This document shows positions 6,653 to 46,634 of a stretch of 64,000 bases of DNA, in pieces. The DNA is from Dehalococcoidia bacterium (lineage in GTDB: Bacteria > Chloroflexota > Dehalococcoidia > Bin125): positions 2,226,699-2,290,698 of the forward strand of contig OZ241375.1 in NCBI GenBank assembly GCA_965200625.1, read 5' to 3'. Made by a program: the position numbers and the translations under genes. Every line of letters starts with the position of its first letter. Positions within the stretch are counted from its first letter, which is position 1. Below the pieces are notes generated by a model that was not told the DNA's origin, ran no database searches, and worked only from the letters and a program-made list of their open reading frames with translations.

Positions 6653-7555
6653 CTACAGGTGAGGGGCGAGGGCGGTGATGAACTCGCGGGTGCGGCGGCG
6701 TTCGTCGGCGTTGACGCCGGCGAAGGCGGCGTAGAAGTCGGTCACGCCGATCTCCCGCCAACGCAGCAGCTCGCGCTCGACTTCCTCCTCGCTGCCGACG
6801 ATCGCTACGCCGCCCGGGTCGTCCGCGCCCGAGCCCTGGATGACGCGCTGGTAGGACGGCAGGGTGTTGTACATGGCGAAGGCTTGGGCGATGCGCTCGC
6901 GGGCGGCGTCCGGGTCGGCGGTGACGGCGACGGGCACGCCGGCGATGATGCGCGGGTCGGGCTTGCCGGCCTCGCGCGCCGCGCCGCCCAGCTCGGGGAT
7001 CACCACGTCCTCGATCCACTGCGGTCCGGCCAGCCAGAGGGCGGTGCCGTCGGCGAGGCGGCCGGTGACGCGCAGCATCTGCGGGCCGAGCGCGGCGACG
7101 ATGACCGACGGCGGCTCGGCGTCGGGCAGGTCAACCTGCGAGTGGACCTGGAACTCCTCGCCGTCGTAGTGCACAACTTCTCCGCGCAAGAGCGGCTGGA
7201 GCACTTCCAAGTACTCGCGCATGTGCCGCACGACCTTCGTGAAGTCGAGCCCCCAGGAGTCGCGGATCACGACTTCGTGCGAGAGTCCGAGTCCGAGTGT
7301 AAAGCGTCCGCCGGCGGCGGCGTTGACGGCGAGCGCCTGCTGCGCCATCGCCACGGGATGGCGGGTGTAGGTCGGAATCACGTAGGTGCCCAACTCGATC
7401 GTGGTGGTGGTCTCGGCGGCGAGGGCGAGCACGGTCATCGCGTCGTGGCCGACCGAGGGCAGGAAAGCGCCGGCGAAACCGACGGTTTCGAGTTGGCGGA
7501 TGGCTTCGATCTTGCCGGCGAGCGTGGCGCCGTCGGGCGGGGCGAGGATGCGCAT
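6653..7555 (-). CDS. LLM-class (luciferase-like) F420-dependent oxidoreductase.
   Basis: MRILAPPDGATLAGKIEAIRQLETVGFAGAFLPSVGHDAMTVLALAA...GLGLSH matches the TIM-barrel luciferase-like monooxygenase family (F420-dependent subgroup). Confidence 0.8.
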   Translation of the reverse strand: MRILAPPDGATLAGKIEAIRQLETVGFAGAFLPSVGHDAMTVLALAAETTTTIELGTYVIPTYTRHPVAMAQQALAVNAAAGGRFTLGLGLSHEVVIRDSWGLDFTKVVRHMREYLEVLQPLLRGEVVHYDGEEFQVHSQVDLPDAEPPSVIVAALGPQMLRVTGRLADGTALWLAGPQWIEDVVIPELGGAAREAGKPDPRIIAGVPVAVTADPDAARERIAQAFAMYNTLPSYQRVIQGSGADDPGGVAIVGSEEEVERELLRWREIGVTDFYAAFAGVNADERRRTREFITALAPHL

Positions 7556-7650: not shown

Positions 7651-8550
7651 ATGGCATCGGCGGAACTGCAGAAGGTCCTGCGCTTGATGGCGGAGCGCCC
7701 GCTCGGCGGCGGCGCGACTGACATTCAGGGGATGCGCGAGGGAATGGAGGCCGGTTCGTTTCCGGCGACGGAGGCGGCCGCGGTCACGGCAGTCGACGCG
7801 AACGGCGTGCCAGGCGAGTGGGTGACGGTCGCCGGGTCCGATCCCAACCGCCGCCTGCTCTACGTGCACGGCGGCGGCTATGTGCTCGGCTCACCGGTGA
7901 CCCACCGCCGACTCTGTGAGGGCATCGCCGCGGCGGGCGGCTGCGCCGTGCTCAACCTGGACTATCGGCTCGCGCCGGAGCATCCCTTCCCGGCGGCGGT
8001 TGATGACGCGATCGCGGGGCTGCAGTTTATCCAGGCCAACGGCCCCGACGGGGAAGGCGCGGCGGAGGCGGTCTTCGTCGCCGGCGACTCGGCCGGCGGC
8101 GGGCTGACCCTGGCGACGCTGCTCGCCGCCCGCGAGCGCGGAGTCGAGCAGCCGAACGCGGCGGTCGGGATTTCCGCCTGGACCGATCTGGCGATCACGG
8201 GCGAGTCGATTCAGACGCGGGCGGAGAATGACCCCTTGATCACGGATTCGTCGATGATCCACGTCATGGCGTCTGCCTACCTCGGCGACACGGCGGCGAC
8301 CGATCCGTTGGCCTCCCCGCTGTATGCCGACTACGCCGGGCTGCCGCCGCTGTTGTTGCAGGTCGGCGACGCCGAAGTGTTGCTGTCTGACACGACGCGG
8401 GTGACCGAGCGGGCGCGGGCGGCGGGCGTGGACGTGGTCGAGGAGGTCTGGGACGAGATGTTCCACGTCTGGCACGCGTTCGCGCCGATGCTGCCCGAGG
8501 GTCAGCAGGCGATTGAGCGGATCGGCGAGTTCATCCAACAGCACGCCTAG
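7651..8550 (+). CDS. Alpha/beta hydrolase fold-3 esterase/lipase (HSL family), paralog 1.
   Basis: LLYVHGGGYVLGS oxyanion-hole HGGG motif, LDYRLAPEHPFPAAVDDA and GDSAGGGL nucleophile elbow (GxSxG). Confidence 0.85.
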   Translation: MASAELQKVLRLMAERPLGGGATDIQGMREGMEAGSFPATEAAAVTAVDANGVPGEWVTVAGSDPNRRLLYVHGGGYVLGSPVTHRRLCEGIAAAGGCAVLNLDYRLAPEHPFPAAVDDAIAGLQFIQANGPDGEGAAEAVFVAGDSAGGGLTLATLLAARERGVEQPNAAVGISAWTDLAITGESIQTRAENDPLITDSSMIHVMASAYLGDTAATDPLASPLYADYAGLPPLLLQVGDAEVLLSDTTRVTERARAAGVDVVEEVWDEMFHVWHAFAPMLPEGQQAIERIGEFIQQHA

Positions 8551-8597: not shown

Positions 8598-9518
8598 ATG
8601 CCTTCGCAGGAGTACTACGAGGTTGTTGAGGCGATGCGCAGCCAGGCCGCCAGCATGATTGAGGGCGAGCTGACGATCGAGCAGCAGCGCGCGGCGATGG
8701 AAGCGGGGTTTGCTTTTCCTCTGGAAGATGACCTCACCCTGACGGCGGTCGACGCCAACGGCGTGCCGGGCGAGTGGACGGCGCTGCCCGGCTCTGATCC
8801 CGATCGGCGCTTGCTGTACGTCCACGGCGGCGGCTACGTGCTGGGGTCGATCAAGACGCATCGGCGGCTGGTGGCGGACATATGCCGCGCCGCGGGCTGC
8901 GTCGCGCTGAGCCTCGACTATCGGCTCGCGCCCGAGCATCCCTTTCCCGCCGCCGTGGACGACGCGATTGCCGGGCTGGAGCACATCTGGGCGAACGGCC
9001 CGGATGGCCCGAGTGCGGCGAGTGCCGTCTTCGTGGCGGGCGACTCTGCCGGCGGCGGGCTGACGCTGGCGACCCTGGTCGCCGCGCGCGAGCGCGGGGT
9101 GCGGATGCCGAGCGCCGGGATCGGGTTGTCGCCGTGGGCTGATCTGGCCGCCGGCCCGGAGGAGTTGTCCGCGTTTGGACACGACGATCCGACGATCCCC
9201 GACAACACGACGGCGATCACCGCCTCGCAGGCCTGGGCGGCGATGTACGCCGGCGATGCGGATCGCGCAGATCCGCTGGTGTCGCCGCTGTTCGCCGACT
9301 ACGCCGGGCTGCCGCCGCTGCTGCTCCAGGCGGGCGCGGTGGAGATGATCGCCCGCGACACGACGCGCGTGGCGGAACGGGCGCGGGCGGCCGGTGTGGA
9401 GGTCGTCGAAGAACTCTGGGACGATATGTTCCACGTCTGGCAGGCGTTCGCGCCGATGCTGCCCGAGGGTCAGCAGGCGATTGAGCGGGTCGGCGAGTTC
9501 ATCAAGCAGCACGCCTGA
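8598..9518 (+). CDS. Alpha/beta hydrolase fold-3 esterase/lipase (HSL family), paralog 2 (tandem duplicate of 7651..8550).
   Basis: Same HGGGY, LDYRLAPEHPFPAAVDDAIAGL and VFVAGDSAGGGLTLATL motifs. Roughly 70% identical to the upstream copy by eye. Confidence 0.85.
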   Translation: MPSQEYYEVVEAMRSQAASMIEGELTIEQQRAAMEAGFAFPLEDDLTLTAVDANGVPGEWTALPGSDPDRRLLYVHGGGYVLGSIKTHRRLVADICRAAGCVALSLDYRLAPEHPFPAAVDDAIAGLEHIWANGPDGPSAASAVFVAGDSAGGGLTLATLVAARERGVRMPSAGIGLSPWADLAAGPEELSAFGHDDPTIPDNTTAITASQAWAAMYAGDADRADPLVSPLFADYAGLPPLLLQAGAVEMIARDTTRVAERARAAGVEVVEELWDDMFHVWQAFAPMLPEGQQAIERVGEFIKQHA

Positions 9519-9579: not shown

Positions 9580-11403
9580 TTGTTCAGCGCCTGGTTCGCG
9601 TACTTCATTGGACGCTGGGAGGGGTACAACCTCCAGAAGCTGCGCGGGGACATCTTCGGCGGGGTGACTTCCGGAGTCGTCGCGCTGCCGGTCTCGCTGG
9701 CGTTGGGCGTGGCCGCAGTCTCGACCGCGGGCGGCGATGTTGGCCAGGGCGCGCTGGCCGGTCTGTACGGGGCGATCGCGGTCGGCGTCTGCGCCGCGTT
9801 GTTCGGCGGGACGCCGGCGCAGGTCTCCGGGCCGACGCCGCCGATGGCAATCGCGATGGCCGTGGTGGTCGCGCAGAAGGGGCTGGAAGAGGCCTTCGCG
9901 GTCGTCCTGCTGGCCGGGCTGTTCCAGATCGCGTTTGGCGTGCTGCGGGTCGGGCGGTTCATTTCGTACACGCCCTATTCGGTGATTTCGGGATTTATGT
10001 CGGGCATCGGCATGATCATCATCGTGATCCAGCTGCTGCCGTTCTTCGGCTTCCCCGTCCAGGCGGGACGGCTGACGGCGTCGCTGGAAGCGCTGCCCGA
10101 CGCGATTCGGGAACTCAACATTGACGCCTTCGGCGTGGCGCTGTTCACGCTGGGTCTGGTCGTGTTCTGGCCGCGCCGCTTCCGCGGCGTGATCCCGCCG
10201 ACGCTGGCGGCGCTGGTGCTGGGCACCGGCCTGAGCCTGCTCTGGCTGGACGGCGCGCCCACCATCGGCGACATTCCGACCGGTTTCCCCTCGCTTCAGT
10301 GGCCGGACTGGTCGCTTGACTTCGTGCTCGCGGTGATCGAGCCCGCGTTCATCATCGCGCTGCTGGGTTCAATCGACAGTCTGCTCACGTCGCTCGTGGC
10401 GGATTCGCTGACGCGCACGACGCACCGGCCGAATCGCGAGCTGTTCGGCCAGGGTCTGGGCAACACGCTCTCGGGCCTGATCGGCGGGCTGCCGGGCGCG
10501 GGGATGACGCTGACGACGGTGGTCAACGTCCGCGCCGGCGGCCGGACGCCGCTGGCGGGCATTCTGGTCGCGGTCGTGCTGCTGGCGCTGGCGATGGGCG
10601 GCGGCGCGATTGCGGAACCGATTCCCCACGCCGTGCTGGCCGGCATCCTGCTCAAAGTCGGCTGGGACATCATCGACTGGCGCTTCCTGCGCCGCATCCG
10701 CGACATTCAGGGCTCGCACCTGCTGGTCATGTTCATGACGGTGGTGCTGACGATGTTCGTCGATCTGGTCACGGCGGTAGCGATTGGCCTGATCGCGGCC
10801 GGGATGGCGAATGCGCTCCGCTCGGAACGGTTCGAGCTGGACAACGTGCTCTCGGTGCCGCTGCTCGACCTGAGCGGCGACGATCCGTACTCGGCGCGGA
10901 CGGGCCTGCTGGCGCTGCGCGGCCGCTTCTCGGTCGCCTCATCAAGCGCCCTGGTGCGGGCGATCACGCCCGACATCCAGGAGCACGAAGTGGTGATCTT
11001 CGACTTCTCGCGGACGACAGCGCTCGATGACAGCGCGGCGATGGTGATCAAGGATCTGGTCGAAGGCGCGACGGAGCAGGGCACGCAGAGCATTGCGATG
11101 GGTCTGGAACAGACGCCGTCGGTCGAGTCGGCGTTGGACTCGTTGGGCGCGCTCGACGACATCCCGCCGGAGCGGCGGGTCGAGACGCTGGTCGAAGCGC
11201 GCGAGTTGGCGGATGCGCTGCTCGCCGAGCGGGACGCGGCGGAGGCGGCGCAGGCGGCAGAGGCGGCACTCGAGACCGAGGCGGAAGCGACCGAGGCGGA
11301 AGCGACCGAGGCGGAAGCGACCGAGTCCGACGAGGCCGTTGAGGGTGACGAGGGCGAAGCAGAGGCAGAGGCGTCGGAGGAGTCGAGCAGCGCCAACAGC
11401 TAG
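9580..11403 (+). CDS. SulP-family anion transporter with a C-terminal STAS domain and an acidic EAEAT repeat tail.
   Basis: N-terminal LRGDIFGGVTSGVVALPVSLALG and multiple TM segments typical of SulP. STAS-like region VVIFDFSRTTALDDSAAMV. TTG start at 9580 with a GGGAGAAG RBS. The C-terminal (EAEAT)3 is encoded by a 15-bp x3 tandem repeat at ~11278-11325. Confidence 0.85.
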   Translation: MFSAWFAYFIGRWEGYNLQKLRGDIFGGVTSGVVALPVSLALGVAAVSTAGGDVGQGALAGLYGAIAVGVCAALFGGTPAQVSGPTPPMAIAMAVVVAQKGLEEAFAVVLLAGLFQIAFGVLRVGRFISYTPYSVISGFMSGIGMIIIVIQLLPFFGFPVQAGRLTASLEALPDAIRELNIDAFGVALFTLGLVVFWPRRFRGVIPPTLAALVLGTGLSLLWLDGAPTIGDIPTGFPSLQWPDWSLDFVLAVIEPAFIIALLGSIDSLLTSLVADSLTRTTHRPNRELFGQGLGNTLSGLIGGLPGAGMTLTTVVNVRAGGRTPLAGILVAVVLLALAMGGGAIAEPIPHAVLAGILLKVGWDIIDWRFLRRIRDIQGSHLLVMFMTVVLTMFVDLVTAVAIGLIAAGMANALRSERFELDNVLSVPLLDLSGDDPYSARTGLLALRGRFSVASSSALVRAITPDIQEHEVVIFDFSRTTALDDSAAMVIKDLVEGATEQGTQSIAMGLEQTPSVESALDSLGALDDIPPERRVETLVEARELADALLAERDAAEAAQAAEAALETEAEATEAEATEAEATESDEAVEGDEGEAEAEASEESSSANS

Positions 11404-12089: not shown

Positions 12090-13454
12090 CTATGGGTAGA
12101 ACAGCTTCTGCGCGGCTTGGCGCAGTTCGGCGCGGAAGTCGGGGTGGGCGACGGCGATCAGCTCGTCGGCGCGTTGGCGCACCGTCTTGCCGAGCAGGCG
12201 GGCGATGCCGTATTCGGTCACGACGGTGTCGGCGATGTCGCGGGGGACGGTGACGATCTGGCCGGGGTCGAACTGGGCCATGATCGTGGAGATCGTGCCG
12301 GCGCGGTTGGTCGAGGGCATCACCGTGACGTAGCGGCCCTTGGGCGCGAGGTAGGCGCCCATGGCGAAGGCAAGGTGTCCGCCGACGCCCGCGTAGACGC
12401 GCGGGCCGATCGTGTGGACGCCGATCTGCCCGCTGAGGTCAACAGTCAGCGCGCCGTTGATTGCGACGATGTTCTCGTTGCGGGCGATCTGGCGGGGGTC
12501 GAGCAGGTACTCGATTGAGTAGGTCTCGAAGTGCGGGTTGCGGTGGACGACGGCGTGCTCGTCGGGCGTGTTGCCGATCACGGTGGCGACGAACTTGTCG
12601 GGGTGGGTGTCGGAGTATTTCCCCGTGATCACGCCGCGTTCGACCAGCGGCACCAGCCCCTCGACGGTGAGCTCGGCGAAGTAGGAGAGATTCTCGCGCT
12701 CGTCGAACGCGCCCAGGCGCGGCAGCGCGCCGGTGTGCGAGCCGACGCCGACCTGAATCGTGTCGCCGTCCTGGACTAACTGGCCGACGTAGTGGGCGAG
12801 CGCGAGGTCGGTTTGATTTGGTTCGGGATGCTCCAGATTGACGACGACCGGCGAGTCGGCGGGGACGAAGCAGTCGATCTCCGAGACGTGCAGCCAGGAG
12901 TCGCCGAAGGATTCGATCACGTTGTCGTTGATTTCGGCAATGACTTTCCGCGCCCGCTTGGCCGAGGTCACGCCGTCCCAGACCGAACCGCCGAGCGACA
13001 CGTAGCCGGCCTCGTTGGGCGGCGAGGTGCGGATCTGGAGCACGTCGATCGGCCAGGCCTCGTCAGCCTCGCGGCCGGCGTCCCACGCCTTGTGGATGCC
13101 GACCAGCCAGTAGGGGTGATAGTCGGCGACGCGGCTGTTGACGGCGTCGCGGTCGAAGAGCGTGCCGAACTGCGGCGCGAGCTTGAACGCTGCCATCATG
13201 TCTTCGGTGAACCAGCCGGCGTCGGGCACGATCACGGCGCGCACTTCGACGCCCTGCAGCTCGTCCCGTCGGGCGGCGAGCGCCTGGAGAATCGGCAGCG
13301 AGGCGTGGCCGGGCGGCATCCAGAGGTGGTCGCCGGAATGGAACATCGCCGCCGCCATCTCGGGCGTGGCGAGCCGCTCGGCGTAGGCGTCGCGCCAGTT
13401 GATCGTCGGGTCGAAGCGCGTGCTGCGCCGCTGGTAGTAGGGAGACGTGGTCAT
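12090..13454 (-). CDS. Acetyl-CoA hydrolase/transferase family protein (4-hydroxybutyrate CoA-transferase-like).
   Basis: The ATG at 13454 (MTTSPYYQRRSTRF...) begins a 455 aa protein with the characteristic ...GNTPDEH...GALTVDLSGQIG...GVGGHLAFAMGA... core. The 360 aa N-terminal extension in the ORF track (to 14537) is Arg-rich antisense junk. Confidence 0.85.
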   Translation of the reverse strand: MTTSPYYQRRSTRFDPTINWRDAYAERLATPEMAAAMFHSGDHLWMPPGHASLPILQALAARRDELQGVEVRAVIVPDAGWFTEDMMAAFKLAPQFGTLFDRDAVNSRVADYHPYWLVGIHKAWDAGREADEAWPIDVLQIRTSPPNEAGYVSLGGSVWDGVTSAKRARKVIAEINDNVIESFGDSWLHVSEIDCFVPADSPVVVNLEHPEPNQTDLALAHYVGQLVQDGDTIQVGVGSHTGALPRLGAFDERENLSYFAELTVEGLVPLVERGVITGKYSDTHPDKFVATVIGNTPDEHAVVHRNPHFETYSIEYLLDPRQIARNENIVAINGALTVDLSGQIGVHTIGPRVYAGVGGHLAFAMGAYLAPKGRYVTVMPSTNRAGTISTIMAQFDPGQIVTVPRDIADTVVTEYGIARLLGKTVRQRADELIAVAHPDFRAELRQAAQKLFYP

Positions 13455-13565
13455 CGCAATGCCTGCCGACTCTGCCTGATGCTGCGGGCGGGTGGTTAGA
13501 CTCGTAACAAGGTAATGCCGACGGCTCCAGATCGAACGGTGCAGCATTGAACGGCTCAGTATTGA

Positions 13566-14768
13566 ATGGGGGACGAGATGGCCAGTGACGGACGGATGGA
13601 CTTCGGAATCTTCATGGCGCCGTTCCACCGAGTGGGAGAAAACCCCTCGCTGGCGATTCACCGCGATCTGGAGTTGGTCGAGTGGCTCGATCAACTCGGC
13701 TACGACGAGGCGTGGATCGGCGAGCATCACTCCGCCGGCTGGGAACTGATTGCCTCGCCCGAGGTGTTCATCGCTGCGGCGGCGGAGCGGACGAGCAACA
13801 TCCGGCTGGGGACGGGCGTGGTCTCGCTGCCCTATCACCATCCGCTGATGGTGGTCGACCGCATGATCCAGCTCGATCACATGACGCGCGGGCGGGTGAT
13901 GATGGGCGTCGGGCCGGGCGCGCTGTCCTCGGACGCGCGGATGATGGGGATCGACCCGCTCTATCAGCGGCAGCGGATGGATGAGTCGTTGCAGGCGATC
14001 ACGGCGCTGCTGCGGCAGGACGGTCCGGTCAACATGAAGACGGACTGGTTCGAGCTGACCGACGCGCGCTTGCAGGTCTCGCCGTACACAAAGCCGCACT
14101 TCGAGATGGCGGTCGCCTCCACGGTCAGCCCGGCCGGCCGGGTGACGGCGGGCAAGTACGGGATGGGGATGCTCAGCATCGGCGTCTACCTGCCCGGCGG
14201 CCGCTCGAACCTCGAGGGGCAGTGGGAGGAAGTGGAACAGGTCGCGGAGCGCGAGGGCACGGTCGTTGACCGCAACAAGTGGCGGCTCGTGATCCCGATG
14301 TACATCGCGGAGACGCGCGAGCAGGCCTTCGCCGAGTGCCGCGAGGGTTGGCGCGCCTGGCAGATCGACTACTTCCGCGACACGCTCCAGGCGGTGCTGC
14401 CGGGCACGGCGGAGACGCCGGAAGGCGCGGTGGCGACGGGCGGCGCGATCATCGGCACGCCGGACGACGCGATCAAGGCGATTGAGATTCTGCAGGAGAA
14501 CTCGGGCGGCTTCGGCGGGCTGATGATGCTGGCGCACGAGTGGGCGAACCGCGAGGGGATTCGGCGCAGCTACGAGCTGTTCGCGCGCTACGTCGCGCCC
14601 CGATTCCAGGGTCAGCTGGCCTCGGTCGAGGGCACCCAGCAGTGGGTCGCTTCGGGCGGTGGCGCGGTCTCGTTCAGCCGCACCGACGTGCTGGCCAAGG
14701 CGTTCATCGACGCCGGCCAGGAAGTCCCCGACTTCCTCCAGGCCCCGGCCGAGGCAGCGTCCGACTAG
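13566..14768 (+). CDS. LLM-class flavin-dependent oxidoreductase (luciferase-like monooxygenase).
   Basis: DFGIFMAPFH...LGYDEAWIGEHH...VMMGVGPG pattern of LLM monooxygenases. Confidence 0.8.
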   Translation: MGDEMASDGRMDFGIFMAPFHRVGENPSLAIHRDLELVEWLDQLGYDEAWIGEHHSAGWELIASPEVFIAAAAERTSNIRLGTGVVSLPYHHPLMVVDRMIQLDHMTRGRVMMGVGPGALSSDARMMGIDPLYQRQRMDESLQAITALLRQDGPVNMKTDWFELTDARLQVSPYTKPHFEMAVASTVSPAGRVTAGKYGMGMLSIGVYLPGGRSNLEGQWEEVEQVAEREGTVVDRNKWRLVIPMYIAETREQAFAECREGWRAWQIDYFRDTLQAVLPGTAETPEGAVATGGAIIGTPDDAIKAIEILQENSGGFGGLMMLAHEWANREGIRRSYELFARYVAPRFQGQLASVEGTQQWVASGGGAVSFSRTDVLAKAFIDAGQEVPDFLQAPAEAASD

Positions 14769-14907
14769 CTCCCCGCTGCCCCCTCAGAGGGGGGAAGCTG
14801 TCCCGAAGGGACTGAAGAGGGACGCCCCCTCCGCCTTCTGCGCCTCCCCCAAAGGGGGAGGCCTTTGGAGCGTGTTCTCCTCCCCCCAGAGGGGCGGGGT
14901 GGGCGGA
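14769..14907. repeat. Cluster of GC-rich palindromic hairpin units (REP-like composite element) at a convergent gene junction. It shares a ~45-nt module with 46438..46634.
   Basis: Hairpins ccccctcagaggggg, gtcccgaagggac, gagggacgccccctc, cctcccccaaagggggagg and ctccccccagaggggcgg. The module gctgccccctcagaggggggaagctgtcccgaagggactgaagaggg recurs at 46.5 kb as gctccccctttgggggagctgtcacgaagtgactgaggggg and as ccctcagcggggagaggcgatcccgaagggactgaaggggg. Confidence 0.6.
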
Positions 14908-15609
14908 TCACCAGACCAGGCGGTCGGTGGACTCTTTCAGCGCTTGCCGTCGGATGCGGTAGTCGGGCAGGTGCGACTCGACGAGCCGCCAGTAGGCGGG
15001 ACTGTGGTCGGGTTGGATGAGGTGGCAGAGCTCGTGGACGACGACGTACTCGATAATCTCCGGTGAGGCGAAGATCAGGCGCCAGTTGAAGCTCAGCGTG
15101 CCGAGCGCGGAGGCGCTGCCCCAGCGCGTCTTCTGATCGCGAATCTGGATGCGGGCCGGACGGACGCCAATGCGGTCGATCCAGCGGTCAACGCAGTCGG
15201 TGAACTCGGCGCGGGCGTACTCGCGCAGCCAGGCTTCGGCGTCGCGGCAGCGGTTGTCGTCGGCGGGATTGACGAGGAAGCGCTGGCCGTCGTAGGCAAA
15301 CCGCGACGGGTGGTGGGCAACCGCGACGGGTTGGCCGAGGAGCGGCAGTTGGCCGCCGGCCCGCAGCTGGTCGCGCAGCCGGACGGGTGGAGGCGCGGTC
15401 AGGTGTTCCCGAATCCAGTCGGCGCGCCGCTGGAGGAAGGCGTCGATCTGCGCGAGTGGCGTCCGCTTGGGGGCGAGCACGCGCAGGCGGCGGTCGTCGT
15501 CAACGACGAGCGAGATGCTCTTGCGCCGCCGGGCGCTGCGGTGCAGCTCGTAGGTGAACTCGCGTCCGGCGAGGACGGCGCGGCGTTCGATCGGTTGGCC
15601 GCAGGACAC
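14908..15609 (-). CDS. M48/DUF45 (YgjP-like) metal-dependent hydrolase.
   Basis: HELCHL (HExxH zinc site) near the C-terminus and a YgjP/DUF45-like overall layout. 233 aa. Confidence 0.7.
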   Translation of the reverse strand: MSCGQPIERRAVLAGREFTYELHRSARRRKSISLVVDDDRRLRVLAPKRTPLAQIDAFLQRRADWIREHLTAPPPVRLRDQLRAGGQLPLLGQPVAVAHHPSRFAYDGQRFLVNPADDNRCRDAEAWLREYARAEFTDCVDRWIDRIGVRPARIQIRDQKTRWGSASALGTLSFNWRLIFASPEIIEYVVVHELCHLIQPDHSPAYWRLVESHLPDYRIRRQALKESTDRLVW

Positions 15610-17065: not shown

Positions 17066-18121
17066 ATGGCGGCTGAGATTCGGCTGGGCGTGCTCGATCA
17101 GATTCCGATCCGCGAGGGCGGCACGGCGGCGACGGCGATCACGGAAACGTTCGCGCTGGCGCAGGCCTGCGATCTGCTGGGCTACTCACGCTATTGGCTG
17201 GCCGAGCATCACAACGCCGGCTCGCTGGCCTGCGCCTCGCCGGAGGTGTTGATTCCCCAGGTCGCCTGGCTGACCGATCGGATTCGGGTCGGCTCGGGCG
17301 GGATCATGCTGCCGCATTACTCATCGCTCAAGGTGGCCGAGAACTTCCGCACGATGACGACCCAGTTCCCGGGCCGGATCGACCTCGGCGTGGGGCGCGC
17401 GCCGGGCTCGGACGGACGCACCGCGCGGGCGTTGGTGCACGGGCCGGGGGCGCTGGGCATCGATCATTTTCCCGAGCAGCTGCTCGATCTCTACGGCTGG
17501 CTGGCCGACGACCTGCCGCCCGATCATCAGTACCGCGAGGTGCGGGCCGCGCCGCCGGGCGCGCCGATGCCGGAGCTCTGGCTGCTGGGCTCGTCGCACT
17601 ACGGCGGCCACGTGGCGGCCGAGTTGGGCTGGTCGCACTGCTTTGCGCACTTCATCTCGCCCGAGGGCGGCGAGCAGGTGGTGCGCAAGTACCGCGAGCG
17701 CTTCCAGCCGTCGCCGGTCAGCGCCGAGCCGCGGGCGTCGCTGGGCGTCTCGGTCACGGTCGCGGAGACGGACGAAGAGGCCGAGCGGCTCTGCTGGAGC
17801 CGCTGGTGCTGGCGGATCAAGGGCAACCGCGGGATGCGCGGCGGGATTCCGTCGGTCGAGGAAGCGCTGAACTTCCCGTACTCGCAGCCCGAGCTGGATT
17901 ATCTCGCCTACATGAAGAATCGCAGCATCCACGGCGCTCCCGAGACGGTGCGGACACGGCTGGAACAGCTGGCCGCGGCCTACGACGTGGATGAATTCAT
18001 CGTGCTCACAATCACGCACGACTTCGCCGCGCGGATCCGTTCCTACGAGCTGCTGGCGGACGTGTTCGACCTACCGCGCAGCGACTCGGAAGCCGGCGTC
18101 AATCCAGCGGCGGCTGATTGA
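17066..18121 (+). CDS. LLM-class flavin-dependent oxidoreductase (MsnO8-like luciferase-like monooxygenase).
   Basis: LGVLDQIPIREG...YSRYWLAEHHN...IRVGSGGIMLPHYS is a signature of this LLM subfamily. Confidence 0.8.
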   Translation: MAAEIRLGVLDQIPIREGGTAATAITETFALAQACDLLGYSRYWLAEHHNAGSLACASPEVLIPQVAWLTDRIRVGSGGIMLPHYSSLKVAENFRTMTTQFPGRIDLGVGRAPGSDGRTARALVHGPGALGIDHFPEQLLDLYGWLADDLPPDHQYREVRAAPPGAPMPELWLLGSSHYGGHVAAELGWSHCFAHFISPEGGEQVVRKYRERFQPSPVSAEPRASLGVSVTVAETDEEAERLCWSRWCWRIKGNRGMRGGIPSVEEALNFPYSQPELDYLAYMKNRSIHGAPETVRTRLEQLAAAYDVDEFIVLTITHDFAARIRSYELLADVFDLPRSDSEAGVNPAAAD

Positions 18122-19550
18122 GCAGGGGCGCCGGGTCAAGTCCGCGTGCGGCCAGAATGTCCGCCGTGACCTGCCGCGCAGTCTCATAACCGGCGTCGGT
18201 GCGCGCTTCCACGACGACGGTCAGGTAGGGCGTCGTGTTCGAGGCACGGATTACGCACCAAGCGCCGTCGGCCAGTGTGGAGAGGTCGATCCGCGCGCCG
18301 TCAATCTCATTGACCGGCCAGCGCCCGCGGACCGCGTCGACGAGGGCCGAGGCGGCAGCGTGTTTGCGTTCGTCGGGGCAGTGGATTTTGACTTCCGGCG
18401 AGATCGGATAGCGCGGCAGCCCGTCCAGAATCGGGGTGAGCGGAGTGGTCGCGGCGAGGCGGGCGAGGCGGCAGGCGGTGCGCACGGCGTCGTCGCTGAA
18501 GTGGGGCGGATCGGCGAGGCGGTAGTAGTAGTGGGTCGAGGCCTCGCCGCCGAACTCGATGCCGCGCGCCTGCATCGCGTACTTGCCGAGCGAATGTCCG
18601 ACCGGGCCAAAGACGGCTCGCCCGCCGAGCCGCTCGATGTGTTCAATCACGGCCTGAGACGTCTTGACATCGACCTGGATCTGCGCGCCGGGCCGGGCGG
18701 CGAGCCATTCCCCCGCCAACAGCGCGAGCACCTGATCGGGCCGGGCGCGGCGGCCGCGGCTGTCGACCAGACCGAGGCGGTCGCCGTCGCCATCGAACGC
18801 GAACCCGAGGTCTGCGCCTGCCTCGCGGACGAAAGCCGCCAACTGCGCGACGTTGGCGGCGTGCTGCGGATCGGCGGGATGCGGTGGGTGAGGTTCGTTG
18901 GGATCATCGTTGATGGCCTGCACGTCAGCGCCGATCGCGCGGAGCGCGGGCGCGGCGGTCAGCGCGGCTGCGCCGTTGCCGGGATCGACTGCGACAGTCA
19001 AGCGCCGCGCCAGCGGGTACTGCTCCGCCAGCTGTTGGAGATAGGGCGGCTTCGGGGCCCATTGCGAGCGTGTCCCTGCCGAATGGCGCTCTGTGCGCCC
19101 GCGTTCGATGCGGTCGGCGACGGCCTGGATGGACTCGGGCAGCAGCGGCATCCCGCCGGCCTCGAGCAGTTTGACGCCGTTGTCCTCCGGCGGATTGTGC
19201 GAGGCGGTGATTACGACGCCCCCGGTCGGCTGCGCCGGCGACAGCCTCGCCGCCGCCCAATAGACCAGCGGCGAGGGCGCGCGGCCCAGCGCGATCACGT
19301 CCAGCCCGCCGTCGAGCATCCCCTCGGACGCGGCCTCCATCAGCGACGCTGTGGTTGGGCGTTGATCGCCGCCGATCACCGCCCGTCGGACTGCCCGTTG
19401 GACGGTGTGGCGGACAGGTTGGAGATAGTCGGCGTAGGCGCGGCCGATCTGGTAGGCGAGCGCGGCGGTCAGGGGCGCGCCTGGGCCGTCGGCGCGGCCG
19501 CGGATGTCGTAGGCGCGGAAGATGTCGCGGGGGATCGGGGGCGCGCTCAT
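18099..19550 (-). CDS. Phosphomannomutase/phosphoglucomutase (alpha-D-phosphohexomutase), paralog 1.
   Basis: GGVVITASHNPPEDNGVK active-site serine loop, FDGDGDRLGLVD metal-binding loop and all four phosphohexomutase domains. Confidence 0.85.
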   Translation of the reverse strand: MSAPPIPRDIFRAYDIRGRADGPGAPLTAALAYQIGRAYADYLQPVRHTVQRAVRRAVIGGDQRPTTASLMEAASEGMLDGGLDVIALGRAPSPLVYWAAARLSPAQPTGGVVITASHNPPEDNGVKLLEAGGMPLLPESIQAVADRIERGRTERHSAGTRSQWAPKPPYLQQLAEQYPLARRLTVAVDPGNGAAALTAAPALRAIGADVQAINDDPNEPHPPHPADPQHAANVAQLAAFVREAGADLGFAFDGDGDRLGLVDSRGRRARPDQVLALLAGEWLAARPGAQIQVDVKTSQAVIEHIERLGGRAVFGPVGHSLGKYAMQARGIEFGGEASTHYYYRLADPPHFSDDAVRTACRLARLAATTPLTPILDGLPRYPISPEVKIHCPDERKHAAASALVDAVRGRWPVNEIDGARIDLSTLADGAWCVIRASNTTPYLTVVVEARTDAGYETARQVTADILAARGLDPAPLLNQPPLD

Positions 19551-20250
19551 CGATCAGTACCCTACGCCCATGCCGCTCGAAATCTCCGCCATCGATCGCC
19601 AACGCACGCTGTTCCGCTTCCTGACCAAGTCGGCGCGCAAGGGCGAGCAGGCGGACGCGGCGGCGGCCCGGAGCCGACTGTCATTGTCGGCGGACAGCGT
19701 CGCGCTGGCGGAGATCGCCGACGGGATGCAGGCGAGAGTAGCGGCGCTGGATTCGGATGCGCCCGATCTGCGCGGGATGCTGGGCGGCGCGTCGGCGGAC
19801 GAGCTTGCCGCGATGCAGGCGTTCGATTGGGTCCCGGTGGGCATCTATGCGTTCGGGCTGCCGCCGACCAAGACGCGCTCCGGCACGGACGAGAGCGCCG
19901 CGCACCGCGCCCTGAAGGAGTGGGCGGCGGCGAATGGGGAAGCGTTGGGCGCACCCGCGGACGCGGTCGGCGTGACGGAGCGTTGGTTTCCCTCCGGCGA
20001 TGAGGCGGACGCCGCGTTTGTCGGAGAGGGTGAGACGCTCATCGTCGAGGTACGCCCGGCGGGCGCGGAGCCGCATGAACTGCAACAGGCGCTGTTCCGG
20101 CTGGCGGGGATGCGGGCGGTGCGCGAGGCGGAGCTCTCGCTGGACGGTCGCCGTGACATCGTGCGGGTGACATTGGTGTTGGCGGAAGAGCCGCCGGCCG
20201 CGACGCGCGAGTTGGCCGAGGCGCTGCACGTCGCCATCGTGGTCAAATGA
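19522..20250 (+). CDS. Hypothetical protein (no recognised domain), sandwiched between the two phosphohexomutase paralogs.
   Basis: 242 aa ORF exactly filling the 690-bp gap between the two minus-strand genes. Composition is balanced and coding-like. The competing ORFs in this interval are Arg/Gly-rich artefacts. Confidence 0.5.
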   Translation: MSRGIGGALIDQYPTPMPLEISAIDRQRTLFRFLTKSARKGEQADAAAARSRLSLSADSVALAEIADGMQARVAALDSDAPDLRGMLGGASADELAAMQAFDWVPVGIYAFGLPPTKTRSGTDESAAHRALKEWAAANGEALGAPADAVGVTERWFPSGDEADAAFVGEGETLIVEVRPAGAEPHELQQALFRLAGMRAVREAELSLDGRRDIVRVTLVLAEEPPAATRELAEALHVAIVVK

Positions 20251-21694
20251 GCGGCTGCGGACCGATCGTCGGCGGGTCGTCCAGCTGCTCGACGCCGCTG
20301 ACCTGTGGAAGACGCGCGAGCGCGGTCTGGAGCTGTTCAGCCAGACGGCGGTAGGCGGCTTCGTCCCGCGCCTCGAAGCGCAGGCTGAGCGCGGGCGCGG
20401 TGTTGGAGGCGCGGGCGTGCAGCCAGCCGTCGGGCAGAGTGACGCGCGCGCCGTCGCTGCGATCCAGTACAGCGTCGGGATGGCGCTCGGCGAACCAGTC
20501 GCCGATCTGCTCGGCGACGCTGACTTTCAATTTGTCCCCGCAGGGCAAGCGGAGTTCCGGTGAGATCGGACGCGGTTCGAGCTCCGCCATTGCTTCCGCC
20601 AGCGTGCGCTCCCGCTCTGAGAGGTAAGCGAGCAATGCGCAGGCGGCGTAGACGCCGTCGTCGATCCAGGGGGCGTGCTCGCCGGCGCGGTAGTCGGGGC
20701 CGAACATGATGTGGCCGCTGGTTTCGCCGCCGAAGGCCATGCGCCGCTCGCGCATCGTGCGGCGGAAGAATGAGTAGCCGGTGCGGGCGGTGACAGGCAT
20801 GCCGCCGCGCTGACGGATTTCGTCGATCACGCTGCTGCTCGTCTTCAGGTCGAGCAGGATCTCGCTGCCCGGCCGCCGCGCCAGCAGCGGTCGGGCGAGC
20901 ACGGCGGTCAGCCAGTCGGCTTCATAGCGGCGGCCGAGATGGTCAAGCACGCCAATGCGATCGCCGTCGCCGTCCCAGGCGATGCCCAAGTCAGCCTGCA
21001 ACGCGCCGGTGGCGCGCGCCAGTTCGCGCATGGTCTCGGGATTCTGTGGGTCAGCGGAGAGCGCCGGCGCAGGGCGCGGAGTCGAGCGGATCGCGTGCAG
21101 CCGCGCGCCGAGCGCGAGCAGCGCTCGCGGCGCGGTCAGCGCGGCGACGCCGTTGCCCGGGTCGATGGCGACGGAGAGGCCAGCGGCGCCGCCGCGGAAG
21201 CGCTGATCGATCAGTTCGAGGTACGGCTCGAGGGCGTCGATGTCCGCTCGTGCACCGCTTGCCGCTGCCGTTTTCGGCGGGGACTGGGCCAGCGCGGCGA
21301 TTGCGGCGATCGCGTCCGGCATCAGCGGCTCGGCCGATTCGGCGAGCAGCTTGAAGCCGTTGTACTCGGGCGGATTGTGGCTGGCGGTAATGATCAGCCC
21401 GCCGCCCAAGCCGAGCCGATCGACCGTCCAGCCGATCACCGGCGTCGGCGCGAGCCCGGCCGCGTGGACGTTGACTCCCGCCCGCCGCAAACCGTCAATC
21501 GCCGCCTCATAGAGCGCCGGCGAGCTGGCCCGCGCGTCATGCCCGACGGCGGCGCTGTCCGCTCCGCGCTCGCCGAGCCAGCGGCCAAACGCCAGGCCGA
21601 TGCGCTCGGCTACCGACTCGTCGATCTGATCCGGCGTCGTACCGCGGATGTCGTAGGCGCGGACGATCGCGGGCGGGAGCTCACCGGTCGGCAT
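20243..21694 (-). CDS. Phosphomannomutase/phosphoglucomutase (alpha-D-phosphohexomutase), paralog 2.
   Basis: GGLIITASHNPPEYNGFK and WDGDGDRIGVLD motifs. Confidence 0.85.
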   Translation of the reverse strand: MPTGELPPAIVRAYDIRGTTPDQIDESVAERIGLAFGRWLGERGADSAAVGHDARASSPALYEAAIDGLRRAGVNVHAAGLAPTPVIGWTVDRLGLGGGLIITASHNPPEYNGFKLLAESAEPLMPDAIAAIAALAQSPPKTAAASGARADIDALEPYLELIDQRFRGGAAGLSVAIDPGNGVAALTAPRALLALGARLHAIRSTPRPAPALSADPQNPETMRELARATGALQADLGIAWDGDGDRIGVLDHLGRRYEADWLTAVLARPLLARRPGSEILLDLKTSSSVIDEIRQRGGMPVTARTGYSFFRRTMRERRMAFGGETSGHIMFGPDYRAGEHAPWIDDGVYAACALLAYLSERERTLAEAMAELEPRPISPELRLPCGDKLKVSVAEQIGDWFAERHPDAVLDRSDGARVTLPDGWLHARASNTAPALSLRFEARDEAAYRRLAEQLQTALARLPQVSGVEQLDDPPTIGPQPLI

Positions 21695-21742: not shown

Positions 21743-23071
21743 ATGGCGTCGCGGTTTGGCCGCAACGACTGGGAAGCGGTGTTGCACCGCTGGACGGAGG
21801 CGGAACTGTTCGACGCCGAGACCGCCGCCGCGGTGCGCGCCTGGGAAGCGGAGCGCGAGGCGCAGGCATCGGCGGGCCGTCTGGTTGATTCGCTGTCGTA
21901 TCTGGGCGTCTCGATCGTCCTCGTCGGCGCGCTGCTGGCGGTCGGGCTGATGGATTCCAGCGAGCTCGGGACAATCGTTCTGCCCCTCCTCATCGGGCTG
22001 GCCGCCGCCTTGCTGGCGCGCATCGCCTGGCGCTCCGGGCTCCAGGCGCTGGCGGACGGCTTTGCGGCGAGCGGCGTCATCCTGCTGACGTTGGCGCTGG
22101 GGTTCGGCCTCGAGCGCGTTGACGACAGCGGCGGACAGTATGCGATCGGGTTCTTCCTGATCTGCCTCTGCGCGCTGCTCGTCGGCGGCGGGCTGGCGCG
22201 TCTGGCGCGTTCCCGACTCGCGGCCTTCCTGGCCGCCGTCGCCCTCTGTCTGATGCCGTTTTCGATCGCGGCGGACGACAACGCGCTGAACGTCCTCCGC
22301 TACGGAGGCGCGGGCGACTGGAGCGTCGGCTGGGAGTTGTGGGGGACGCTCGCGGCGGTCGTTGTGGTGGGTCTCGCCGCGCAGATCGCGATGCTGCGCC
22401 CGAGCCGCCTGCTCGACGCGGACGCCGCGCCCTGGGCGCGGCTCGGCGCGTCGCTGGCGACCGGCGGCGCGATTCTGTGGTTGGCCGAGTCGTCGCCCGA
22501 GGCGGCCCTCGACTGGATGTCGCTGCTCGCCGGTTGGCTCGTGACCGTGCTCGCCTTTCGCCAGAATCGGTTCGAGCTATTGCCGGCGTCGGCGTTGCTT
22601 CTGCTCGGTGCGCTCGTCGGCGGGCTCTCCGATCTCGACAGCGAGCTGCATCTCGGACTGACGGTCGTAGTGCTCTTCACGGCGCTGCAGGTGACGATCG
22701 TCGGCATGGCCGGCCCGCAGCTGCTGGGCGCGTTGGCCGAGCACTGGCTGCTGCCCTTCTGGCAGGCGGCGCTGCTGACAGGCGGTGTGGTCGCCGTGTC
22801 GATCCTCGCTGCCGACCACGCCGGGCTCGCCGCAATCGGGATCATCTGGGGACTCTTCCTGCTCGTCGCGGGAGTAGTCCGCCGCCAGCGCCTCGAGCTC
22901 TGCTTCGGCGCGGCGGGCGTCTACGGCACCGGCCTGGCGCTGATCCTCGGGCACCTGGAATCCAGCCTCGGCGCGGTGATCGCCACGCTCGCGCTGGGCC
23001 TGCTGATCGTCGCGGGCGCGATCATCTGGCGGCGGCAGCGCGGCGCGACCGTGGTCGAGGGCGCGTCATAG
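21743..23071 (+). CDS. Polytopic membrane protein of unknown function, paralog A. It has an N-terminal soluble helical domain.
   Basis: N-terminus NDWEAVLHRWTEAELFDAETAAAVRAWEAEREA followed by ~10 hydrophobic segments, and the C-terminus ends IIWRRQRGATVVEG. Confidence 0.7.
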   Translation: MASRFGRNDWEAVLHRWTEAELFDAETAAAVRAWEAEREAQASAGRLVDSLSYLGVSIVLVGALLAVGLMDSSELGTIVLPLLIGLAAALLARIAWRSGLQALADGFAASGVILLTLALGFGLERVDDSGGQYAIGFFLICLCALLVGGGLARLARSRLAAFLAAVALCLMPFSIAADDNALNVLRYGGAGDWSVGWELWGTLAAVVVVGLAAQIAMLRPSRLLDADAAPWARLGASLATGGAILWLAESSPEAALDWMSLLAGWLVTVLAFRQNRFELLPASALLLLGALVGGLSDLDSELHLGLTVVVLFTALQVTIVGMAGPQLLGALAEHWLLPFWQAALLTGGVVAVSILAADHAGLAAIGIIWGLFLLVAGVVRRQRLELCFGAAGVYGTGLALILGHLESSLGAVIATLALGLLIVAGAIIWRRQRGATVVEGAS

Positions 23072-23086: not shown

Positions 23087-24427
23087 GTGGAGTCGATGGC
23101 AGCGAACGAGCGGGACAAGCGGAACGAGTGGGACGCGGCGCTGGAGCGCTGGCGCGAGGCGGGCTTCGTCGAGGCGGAGACGGACGCAGCAATCCGCGAC
23201 TGGGAAGCGGCGCGCGGCGCAAAACCAGCCCCGCGAGGGCGCGGAGCCGTGGCGCTCTCCTACGTCGGCGTTTCGATCCTCCTGATCGGTCTGTTCACGC
23301 TGAATGAGCGGGTCGTAGACGGGCGCCCCGCCTGGATGGCGCTGCCGTTCGGGCTCGCGCTGGTCAGCGCGGCGCTGGCCTGGTGGAGCCGCCGGGCGGT
23401 GCTGGCCGAGCTCTCGGACTGCTTGGCCATCGTCACGATCATCATGGCGGCGGTGGGCGTGCTCGCGTTGCTTGATGAGGTCGGCGGCGGGGCGTTGGCG
23501 ATCGTCACGTTGGCGCTCAGTTTCTGCACCGTGCTGGTTGGCTCAGGGATGGCGTGGCTGGCGCGCTCGCCGCGGGCGGCCTTGCTGGCCGCGCTGGCCC
23601 TGACGGCGCTGCCGCTGGTGTTTGTAGTCGAGGGCGATGCGTTTGAGCTGGAGGCGCTCGACGACGGCGTGCAGGCGCTTGCCGGCTGGGTGCTGTGGGG
23701 CGCGTTCGCGGCAACGCTGGCGTTGGGCGGCGGCGCAATGTTCCTGCTGGAACGCCTCCAGCGGCTGGAGGCTGGGCTGCGGCAGTGGGCTCGGCTCGGG
23801 GCGTCCTTGGGAACCGCGTTTGCGATTCTGGCGCTGGCCAGTGTGGCTGGAGGACCGGCAATCGACTGGTTGGCGCTGTTGCTGAGTTGGATCCTCGCGG
23901 TCTGGGCTGTGCGCCGCGGGCAGGCGGAGCTGCTGCCAGCAGCGGGCTTGCTGTTGCTGGGCGCGCTGGTCGGCGGCTTGTCCGATCTGGACAGCGGCGC
24001 GCGGCTGGGGCTGACGATTGCCGCGCTGATCACGGCCCTGCAGCTGACTGCCCTGGAGCGGATTGGCCCGCGCATTCTGGACCGTCTCGGCGACGATTGG
24101 CTGACGCGGTGCTGGGAAGCGGCGCTGCTCGTTGGCGGCCTCGTCGGGGCGGTGTTCCTGGCGGAGCGCAGTCTGGAGCTGGCGAGCGTCGCGGTCGTCT
24201 GGGCGGTCGCGCTGCTGGTCGCGGGGGCGCTGCGGCAGCGCTGGCTGGAAGTCCTCCTCGGCGTGGCCAGCGTCTACGCCGTCGGGTTCACGCTCCTGAT
24301 CGCTCAGTTCGAGTCCGGGCTCGGTGAGGTGCTGGGCGTGCTGTTCGTCGGTTTGCTGGCGGTGGTGGGCGCGATCATCTGGCGGCGGCGGCAGCGCGGT
24401 TTGACACTGGTTACGGGTGACGCATAG
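23087..24427 (+). CDS. Polytopic membrane protein of unknown function, paralog B (tandem duplicate of 21743..23071).
   Basis: N-terminus NEWDAALERWREAGFVEAETDAAIRDWEAARGA and C-terminus IIWRRRQRGLTLVTG mirror the upstream paralog. Shared internal motifs include LLLGALVGGLSDLDS. Confidence 0.7.
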   Translation: MESMAANERDKRNEWDAALERWREAGFVEAETDAAIRDWEAARGAKPAPRGRGAVALSYVGVSILLIGLFTLNERVVDGRPAWMALPFGLALVSAALAWWSRRAVLAELSDCLAIVTIIMAAVGVLALLDEVGGGALAIVTLALSFCTVLVGSGMAWLARSPRAALLAALALTALPLVFVVEGDAFELEALDDGVQALAGWVLWGAFAATLALGGGAMFLLERLQRLEAGLRQWARLGASLGTAFAILALASVAGGPAIDWLALLLSWILAVWAVRRGQAELLPAAGLLLLGALVGGLSDLDSGARLGLTIAALITALQLTALERIGPRILDRLGDDWLTRCWEAALLVGGLVGAVFLAERSLELASVAVVWAVALLVAGALRQRWLEVLLGVASVYAVGFTLLIAQFESGLGEVLGVLFVGLLAVVGAIIWRRRQRGLTLVTGDA

Positions 24428-46437: not shown

Positions 46438-46634
46438 GCTAGGGCGCAAACCATCCTGCCTGCGCGGGCAGGAGGCTCGCCGCGGGCAAAGCTCCCCCTT
46501 TGGGGGAGCTGTCACGAAGTGACTGAGGGGGGCTTCCCCATGCTTCCCTCAGCGGGGAGAGGCGATCCCGAAGGGACTGAAGGGGGTGTGCGCACATCAC
46601 ACCGCTGTCCTCCAAGCAGGATCCGGGGATTGCG
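46438..46634. repeat. Cluster of GC-rich palindromic hairpin units (REP-like composite element; two copies of the module seen at 14769..14907) at a convergent gene junction.
   Basis: cctgcctgcgcgggcaggagg, gctccccctttgggggagc, gtcacgaagtgac, ccctcagcggggag and gatcccgaagggactgaaggggg. Located between the stop of the CoA-transferase (+) and the stop of the MFS gene (-). Confidence 0.6.

Follow-up and report, generated by a model that had tools for sequence, protein, structure and literature searches.

To our knowledge, the bacterial repeats variously called BoxC, PIT (potential intrastrand triplex) and TMECO have been known for some 25 years without an agreed function or in vivo proof that their triplex matters. 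The three names denote a single sequence, CCCTCNCCC-N3-6-GGGNGAGGG-N3-GGGNGAGGG (Holder et al. 2015, PMC4666352, citing Hoyne/Maher 2000), whose class II purine-motif intrastrand triplex forms in vitro as judged by circular dichroism and nuclear magnetic resonance (PMC4666352). Always intergenic and without strand bias, these repeats often stand in inverted pairs that combine type A with type B, are not found on transposons, phages or plasmids, and have neither promoter nor terminator activity in Escherichia coli; their loci are unusually variable, and deletions of a pair tend to leave a hairpin behind (PMC4666352). Here we describe a repeat with the same order of strands in a stretch of 64 kb at 68% GC (hereafter the window) from a Dehalococcoidia bacterium of the Chloroflexota (assembly GCA_965200625.1, contig OZ241375.1, positions 2,226,699 to 2,290,698 of the forward strand). 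It lies at two convergent junctions: site 1, the 139 bp (14769-14907) that separate the stop codon of a monooxygenase gene (+) from that of a YgjP gene (-), and site 2, the 197 nt between a CoA-transferase III gene (+) and a gene for a major facilitator superfamily (MFS) transporter (-), both assigned by Pfam. We read the two spacers as copies, inserted there, of a DNA repeat that is non-coding and non-autonomous. We put at about 0.6 the probability that the property under selection in this repeat is the folding of its G-rich strand, when single-stranded, into a structure of hairpin, mini-hairpin and reverse-Hoogsteen third strand.

On that strand a module runs from a pyrimidine strand (GCTYCCCC) through a loop to a purine strand (GGGGRAGC), and onwards through a T hinge and a mini-hairpin of the form C-GNA-G to a second purine strand (GARGGGG) that mirrors the first. 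Mini-hairpins of this type are reportedly, after Hirao and Yoshizawa, unusually stable in DNA. The window pairs two types of module. The AGC type, M1, has the form GCTCCCCCC-NNN-GGGGGGAGC-T-GTCMC-GAA-GKGAC-T-GAGGGGGG, and the CCG type, M2, the form CCCCCCCTCC-GCCCC-TTC-GGGGC-A-CCTCCCCCC-NNN-GGGGGGAGG; because M1, read as its reverse complement, matches M2 exactly in architecture, the latter is a sister type in the opposite orientation. Between the two purine strands lies the second linker, which consists of a T and a self-complementary mini-hairpin (9-30 nt) and in the window takes the form of T, a 13-nt mini-hairpin and one base. Published triplex searches set loop limits of 1-6 nt and 0-10 nt (PMC4666352), and as this linker exceeds both, such searches would miss the family.

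Three M1 modules occupy the plus strand of the window, together with one M2 module that is inverted and adjoins M1 copy 1. Copy 2 (46491-46532, +; nhmmer E=3.6e-12, also recovered by the triplex scanner) has perfect triads and reads GCTCCCCC-TTT-GGGGGAGC, hinge T, mini-hairpin GTCAC-GAA-GTGAC, T and mirror strand GAGGGGGG. Copy 3 (46543-46586, +), 85% identical to the reference copy and with E=0.0018 for its 3' half, has an intact mini-hairpin TCCC-GAA-GGGA and mirror strand GAAGGGGG along with a degenerate first hairpin, CTTCCCT-CAGC-GGGGAGAGGC. The reference copy of this repeat family (D18) is copy 1 (14775-14821, G-rich strand on +; nhmmer E=2.4e-9 and a relaxed triplex scanner). Its pyrimidine strand, GCTGCCCCCT (14775-14784), is followed by a loop at about 14785-14787, the purine strand AGGGGGGAAGC (14788-14798), hinge T at 14799, the mini-hairpin GTCCC-GAA-GGGAC (14800-14812), T at 14813 and the mirror or third strand GAAGAGGG (14814-14821). 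It is slightly degenerate: the hairpin contains a G.A mismatch, and one triad is mismatched. A 3-nt gap separates it from the inverted M2 (TCCG...CACCTCC...GGAGG; 14825-14863, G-rich strand on -), so that the two fill 14775-14863. M2, a perfect 7-triad match of the generic triplex scanner, comprises the mirror strand, CCCCCTCCG as read on the plus strand (14825-14833), a minimal, degenerate mini-hairpin CCTTCTG (14834-14840; one base different from the CCTTCGG of relatives), a pyrimidine strand (14841-14850), the loop AAA (14851-14853) and the purine strand GGGGGAGGC (14854-14862), an architecture that it shares with 223 modules listed elsewhere. An independent assembly of site 1 (locus L101) differs by a single G in the G-run of the first M1 hairpin (GGGG versus GGGGG; reverse complement of 14779-14793), which may reflect genuine variation in homopolymer length or an error of long-read sequencing. 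Further along the spacer, the plus strand reads CTCCTCCCCCC-AGA-GGGGCGGGG-T-GGGCGG at 14877-14905; this stretch matches no model and is possibly, by weak analogy with a collapsed pair described below, a decayed third module or a pair that has itself collapsed.

A preliminary description of this DNA had seen four consecutive perfect palindromes at site 1. All four lie where it placed them, including CCCCCTCAGAGGGGG (14779-14793), GTCCCGAAGGGAC (14800-14812) and CCTCCCCCAAAGGGGGAGG (14844-14862), but GAGGG-ACGCC-CCCTC (14817-14831) is a 5-bp hairpin and no perfect palindrome. Formed between the mirror strands of M1 and M2, which pair there in the RNA minimum-free-energy fold, it arises as a side effect of their tail-to-tail arrangement and does not constitute an element of its own. 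The description had also treated the palindromes as independent hairpins akin to repetitive extragenic palindromic (REP) sequences or miniature inverted-repeat transposable elements (MITEs); a GC-rich intergenic repeat they are, but as parts of a three-segment mirror module, nearest to BoxC/PIT/TMECO and not to REP sequences with their RAYT transposases. Its module, given as about 45 nt and here some 41-45 nt long, was said to recur twice at 46.44-46.63 kb and is found there as copies 2 and 3, at what is indeed a second convergent junction. A 22-nt core, AGCTGTCMCGAAGKGACTGARG, matches the window three times at up to 3 mismatches against 0.00 times in 100 shuffles, whereas the 13-mer alone is not significant (4 matches in the window, 2.6 expected). 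Folding energies are only slightly beyond those of composition-matched shuffles (z -1.7 to -2.2), because runs of C and G fold well whatever their order; the signal therefore lies in the repeated sequence and its architecture, not in stability itself. In the whole 64 kb the generic triplex scanner returned these modules only, against 0.03-0.1 expected; the 7-8 triads of each are perfect at 46491-46532 and 14825-14863, and 7 of 8 are right at 14775-14821. The general mark of an intrastrand triplex, a pyrimidine block, a purine block and an antiparallel, mirroring third block on one strand, is thus present in the window.

Comparison with relatives suggests how the spacers came to be filled. Synteny at site 1 is kept in all four relatives (58-69% protein identity), which share the order aminotransferase, YgjP, then convergent monooxygenase and acetyl-CoA hydrolase; their stop-to-stop spacers measure 10-12 nt against 139 in the window. 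Relatives of site 2, whose CoA-transferases are 87-88% identical, have spacers of 12, 12 and 81 nt, all devoid of modules. Given these short, module-free spacers, both spacers in the window are lineage-specific insertions, and the idea of a dispersed repeat family, as opposed to terminators evolved ad hoc, is borne out both by them and by the occurrence of modules in many phyla.

The modules, for which the preliminary description had proposed a genome-wide search, reach far beyond the two loci. A scan of one genome per species with the core TCMCGAAGKGACTGARGRGGG matched at least 98 genome stretches, whose listed hosts include several Dehalococcoidia metagenome-assembled genomes (MAGs), gut Clostridia, Riflebacteria, Planctomycetota, Phenylobacterium, Caulobacter and rhizobia, and span about 28-72% GC; for the family at large the range is 28-73%. 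A MAG of Gammaproteobacteria at 38% GC carries dozens of core copies, and in this AT-rich background the element stands out, with two modules visible, M1 and M2 in the forms given above. The 27 nt upstream of the core, which the pattern does not force, are conserved as the hairpin GCTYCCCC-loop-GGGGRAGC, and of the four combinations that the pattern allows in the small hairpin, nearly all matches are C..G or A..T, with A..G twice and C..T never. A second pattern, in which the architecture alone was fixed and two positions, Y and X, were free, was scanned against metagenomes and IMG/VR and proved widespread in soil, gut and marine metagenomes and IMG/VR contigs. The figures for this pattern that follow hold among the matches listed, which comprise 223 distinct modules with a self-complementary small hairpin, on 165 contigs. 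The mini-hairpin comes in 107 distinct sequences, with a stem of at least 3 bp in 78% as against 19% of shuffles, and on the G-rich strand most loops have the form C[GAA]G, C[GCA]G, C[GGA]G or C[GTA]G.

One argument for a triple-stranded fold comes from the mirror strand. Described on the C-rich strand, a module consists of S1 (CCCC-Y1-TC-X1-G), the small hairpin, S2 (C-A-X2-CT-Y2-CCCC), a loop and S3 (GGGG-R3-AG-X3), where S2 and S3 pair Watson-Crick and S1 is the mirror image of S2. In the 223 modules, read on the G-rich strand, the mirror base follows the pair that it faces. At position Y, G-C pairs are met by G (162) or A (13), and A-T pairs by T (21), A (8) or G (1), that is, by T or A in 29 of 30; at position X, G-C pairs are met by G (95), A-T pairs by A in 52 of 55 (G in 3), and C-G pairs by T in 34 of 36. 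Mirror base and pair share 0.52 bits of mutual information at Y and 1.21 at X, beyond permuted maxima of 0.14 and 0.18. A looser pattern with four free triad positions was mis-registered on C-runs and gave too few combinations to use. Template copying yields direct or inverted repeats, never mirror repeats, and a triple helix is the sole nucleic-acid fold known to us that requires mirror symmetry. The antiparallel purine motif admits the triplets G.G-C, A.A-T and T.A-T (PMC4666352), and at Watson-Crick-paired positions these canonical triplets account for 191 of 205 modules at Y and 147 of 191 at X, where a further 34 have T opposite C-G. The covariation of the mirror strand thus reads as the purine-motif triplet code, and it exists in nature because the family has diversified into subfamilies.

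Modules come singly and in pairs. About half of all modules belong to inverted pairs, and among neighbouring modules in metagenomes 20 of 23 pairs are inverted; single modules, tail-to-tail pairs and head-to-head pairs occur equally often. The pair may itself be a unit of gain and loss. On the densest IMG/VR contig examined (L267), a chromosomal RcGTA-like head-tail cluster, four inverted pairs of about 155 nt (3098-3253, 5447-5604, 7097-7253 and 10898-11054) lie between co-directional terminase, portal, capsid and tail genes. They are homologous over their full length in either orientation, each with inverted termini of about 43 nt and a semi-conserved spacer, and three of the four are absent from an orthologous cluster (L323) in which one is present. 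A different array occupies positions 1690-2030 of locus L155, where four modules in direct orientation repeat with a 99-nt period, a tandem arrangement unlike the usual inverted pairs.

Orthologous sites in related Dehalococcoidia genomes retain the elements, and it is here that breakage can be seen. Recombination or insertion hot-spots, as the preliminary description would have it, find some support, in that homology breaks off inside modules and one pair has collapsed to a single hairpin. Homology ends inside a module in two of five locus pairs of related Dehalococcoidia (L035/L072 and L002/L034), in the second case with the module about 85 nt from a tRNA-Met gene; tRNA genes are classical integration hot-spots. 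The collapse is seen between two loci with flanks of 100% identity: where L311 (2310-2540) has an inverted pair with a spacer of about 118 nt, L300 (2978-3012) has the single hairpin AATCTCCCCC-ACGA-GGGGGGAGATT, to which one module contributes its outer arm and the other its loop and an arm. Such a product is consistent with deletion between direct repeats created by the palindromic stems, and is the deletion pattern given for TMECO pairs (PMC4666352). Smaller changes are an extra 33-nt hairpin in L016 that is absent from L052 and, in orthologous M1 copies (L042 and L074), a first-hairpin loop that reads GCAAAGC in one and GCTTTGC in the other with the stem unchanged, which looks like the inversion, or flip, of a palindrome.

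The fold that we favour would arise once the G-rich strand became single-stranded, as may happen in replication, transcription or repair. The pyrimidine strand GCTYCCCC and the purine strand GGGGRAGC would then form a Watson-Crick hairpin, the mini-hairpin would serve as a turn, and the mirror strand GARGGGG would run antiparallel along the hairpin's major groove, giving a class II purine-motif intrastrand triple helix like that of BoxC/PIT/TMECO in E. coli. Given the analogy with TMECO and the breakpoints inside modules, the main consequences would be obstruction of polymerases and local instability. In addition, both convergent transcripts would be expected to carry very stable GC hairpins at their 3' ends.

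Several points weigh against this proposal. The triad classes fall into about 5-6 subfamilies, so that the covariation rests on some four independent coordinated changes and not on 223, and since the patterns required the third strand (S1), decayed copies fall outside the sample. One subfamily, to which window copy 1 belongs, has a Watson-Crick G.A mismatch and yet retains the mirror match. The T opposite C-G, found at the helix end of M1 in the window, is at best a weak triplet, CG inversions being recognised by no natural base (PMC6158708), and the TMECO triplex itself went undetected in vivo by dimethyl sulphate footprinting (PMC4666352). The G-runs could form quadruplexes instead. Nor has a linked mobilising enzyme come to light: when the open reading frames (ORFs) of the 98 loci were clustered, no protein recurred, nor any transposase, and jackhmmer and phmmer searches with a single query, E. 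coli RayT, gave no match; the phmmer search covered 8032 ORFs in 1.6 Mb of DNA that bears the element and was empty even at E<=10. Finally, the ends of the four pairs in the RcGTA-like cluster show no target-site duplication or other direct repeats. Mobilisation of the RAYT or the TIR-MITE kind suggests itself first, though either is short of a defining feature here.

Some of these same facts bear on the other ways in which the repeat might be explained. Were the modules ordinary REP/REPIN palindromes, their inverted pairs would be copied on single-stranded DNA by a single-copy HUH tyrosine transposase (RAYT) encoded elsewhere, and the mirror symmetry would be incidental. High copy number, intergenic location and the share of inverted pairs all suit such an origin, as do the gain or loss of whole 155-nt pairs without target-site duplication, as in HUH transposition, and a mini-hairpin of a type known to be stable in DNA; in Riflebacteria and RUG334, moreover, M1 is followed by a hairpin that bears the classical REP tag, GTAG. 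The module itself, however, has neither a GTAG nor a CGTC tag, the searches for RayT in 1.6 Mb and for a recurrent neighbouring protein at 98 loci came back empty, no bias to local GC skew is seen, and a core common to several phyla is hard to square with REP sequences, which are normally lineage-specific. Three-way covariation would be left without a cause, and we regard this origin as unlikely. Selection might instead act on RNA, with modules serving as bidirectional terminators independent of a U-tract or as 3'-end hairpins that block exonucleases, and a pyrimidine-motif RNA triplex might form on C-rich transcripts; 170 of 205 and 147 of 191 triads are compatible with such a motif. The nearness of many copies to stop codons (about 1-15 nt), the shortage of divergent spacers (5, against 14 convergent), the extreme stability of the predicted folds on both strands (-82 kcal/mol) and the supply of a hairpin set to both convergent transcripts by an inverted pair speak in its favour. 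But copies face the upstream gene either way with equal frequency (17 and 16), a scan for hairpins followed by a T-run found none at either junction, no Rfam family corresponds, and four pairs sit inside a co-directional RcGTA-like cluster that a strong terminator would split. PIT elements, besides, lack terminator and promoter activity, and the most frequent A-T class at Y is compatible with the purine motif alone, a fold that RNA does not adopt (PMC4666352), so that an RNA-level explanation also strikes us as improbable.

That the runs of G and C were selected for G-quadruplexes or i-motifs, the hairpins being secondary, is a good deal harder to maintain. Each module does offer two runs of 4-7 G on one strand, and pairs or clusters bring at least four runs within about 100 nt, but the complementary C-run in cis would compete, and the covariation of the A/T triads, the strict order of strands and the conserved AG/GA punctuation are left unexplained; we think it very improbable. 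Local, independently evolved structures, or chance in a genome of 68% GC, can appeal to composition-matched shuffles of the spacer, which fold almost as readily (z about -2); a 22-nt core that occurs three times where none is expected, near-identical modules in hundreds of unrelated contigs and empty sites in relatives leave such an origin next to no credence, and it is refuted by the genome-scan matches, the conserved hairpin that no pattern forced and the recurrence of the core. Two structured-RNA candidates were likewise discarded. A CUGANGA-like string in copy 1 suggested a ribozyme, but the reading in most copies is CUGAGGG, and modules are oriented without regard to genes; and the tRNA-like cloverleaf of fused M2/M1 copies (L009, L015) is a special case of a shared hairpin.

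Placement in the genome is varied. Of the copies that could be placed, 17 and 16 stand between tandem genes (one figure for each orientation), 14 at convergent junctions and 5 at divergent ones; the marking of convergent junctions, which the preliminary description had made the hallmark of the modules, is therefore no trait of the family. Orientation relative to flanking genes is symmetric, local GC skew reveals no replication-strand bias, and the repeat seems to avoid spacers that bear promoters. We had also considered that the family might be rare in viruses, and rejected the idea: the narrow M1 core has 1 match in IMG/VR, but the architecture pattern is common there. Among plasmids, a BLAST search with M1 matched 2 records, one of them the Haliovirga abyssi plasmid NZ_AP027060.1, where an M1-like copy at 90152-90193 (86% identity over 41 nt) adds a further phylum, Fusobacteriota. 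Rfam returned no match to the whole window at the gathering score and only chance-level matches in E-value mode, and a literature search with exact sequence fragments led to unrelated primers only.

Individual lineages have added their own embellishments. M1 copies in the Gammaproteobacteria MAG have a common extension, ATTAATAGAMTTTTC, past the last G-run, and at three of its loci (L008, L011 and L026) M2 has its 3' end, GGGGGGAGGA, some 3-9 nt upstream of an ATG start, so that its purine strand may also act as a Shine-Dalgarno sequence. In Riflebacteria/RUG334 (for example L019, L031, L032 and L087) M1 runs directly into the GTAG-tagged hairpin mentioned above, AGCAAAGC-GAAG-CTTTGC-GTAG, and some copies there carry a long AT-rich insert in the first hairpin. 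At locus L040 the module site holds runs of 14-21 C and 10 G, which are probably an assembly artefact.

Cross-phylum selfish or semi-domesticated repeats, whose conserved feature would be a single-stranded purine-motif triplex closed by a GNA mini-hairpin, are a possibility that we entertain only tentatively, and with some doubt. If true, the three-way covariation would be the first comparative evidence of selection on DNA triple helices in cells, and would imply a host or mobile enzyme that recognises the triplex fold and copies the element. Family covariation in any case offers a comparative-genomic test of selection for a DNA triple helix, in a family that appears to be more widespread than BoxC/PIT/TMECO. 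For genome annotators the matter is practical: modules fill spacers next to stop codons, create pseudo-ORFs and assembly errors in homopolymer runs, and coincide with rearrangement breakpoints, and an annotation model for them would be of benefit.

Each site is flanked by two genes. At site 1 the luciferase-like monooxygenase (13566-14768, +; Pfam PF00296, E=1e-40) ends in a TAG at 14766-14768 and faces a YgjP-like metallopeptidase of SprT/M48 type (14908-15609, -; PF01863, E=3e-56), whose nearest homologues come from long-read MAGs of Chloroflexota/Dehalococcoidia. A mechanically called ORF of 815 aa (12090-14537, -) overlaps the monooxygenase gene; since its acetyl-CoA hydrolase domains are confined to the C-terminal 430 aa or so, and the gene is called at 485 aa in locus L100, the true start is near 13.5 kb. 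Site 2 is flanked by the family III CoA-transferase (45220-46437, +; PF02515) and the MFS transporter (46635-47906, -; PF07690). A separate GC hairpin, CCTGCC-TGCGCG-GGCAGG (46455-46472), begins 18 nt past the CoA-transferase stop, upstream of both modules; it lies outside the repeat family and has no T-run. The transporter is one of three paralogues in tandem on the minus strand (46635-47906, 47903-49510 and 49548-51032), with 68-82% DNA identity in common blocks (families D4, D7 and D13). Other repetition in the window is of genes: a paralogous pair at 7651-8550 and 8598-9518, with blocks 73-89% identical, and further adjacent or nearby pairs at 18099-19550 with 20243-21694 and at 21743-23071 with 23087-24427, the three pairs making up repeat families D1, D3, D11 and D16. 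A 15-nt tandem repeat (GAGGCGGAAGCGACC-like; 11246-11344, family D2) within the ORF 9580-11403 would encode a repeated acidic peptide rich in Ala and Glu.

Set against known repeat systems, the modules most resemble BoxC/PIT/TMECO, with which they share the order of strands, G/C-rich stems of 8-10 nt, intergenic location, high conservation, the lack of linked mobile-element genes and of strand bias, frequent inverted pairs of two sister types, and loci prone to deletion and rearrangement. They differ in the stem, CTYCCCC(CC)/GGGGRAG here as opposed to CCCTCNCCC/GGGNGAGGG (the TMECO pattern matches the window 0 times and 229 loci once), in a second linker of T plus a 9-30-nt mini-hairpin where TMECO has 3 nt, and in their hosts, which are Chloroflexota, Firmicutes, Alpha- and Gammaproteobacteria, Riflebacteria and others, whereas TMECO belongs mainly to enterobacteria and cyanobacteria. 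With REP, BIME and REPIN sequences they have in common that they are short, GC-rich, intergenic, high-copy palindromes, in mosaic clusters of alternating orientation near the 3' ends of genes, and that the inverted pair is gained or lost as a unit; unlike REP/REPIN-RAYT systems, they show no GTAG or CGTC tag at the modules in the window or at most loci, GTAG being confined to the extra Riflebacteria/RUG334 hairpin, and unlike REP sequences they form a three-segment mirror module whose core is common to several phyla. The 155-nt unit of the RcGTA-like cluster, with its 43-nt inverted termini, its four sites and its absence from three orthologous ones, recalls a MITE with terminal inverted repeats, from which it departs in lacking target-site duplications and in that no parent insertion sequence with matching ends was found. 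Rhizobium RIMEs and the Sm-repeats and A/B/C palindromes of S. meliloti, mentioned as alphaproteobacterial intergenic palindromic repeats in PMC2573895, are likewise intergenic and come from alphaproteobacterial taxa rich in the present family; its members there may already carry such names as RIMEs or A/B/C palindromes. Taken together, these likenesses point to a hairpin-linked intrastrand-triplex repeat whose closest kin would be BoxC/PIT/TMECO, though it stands outside that sequence family.

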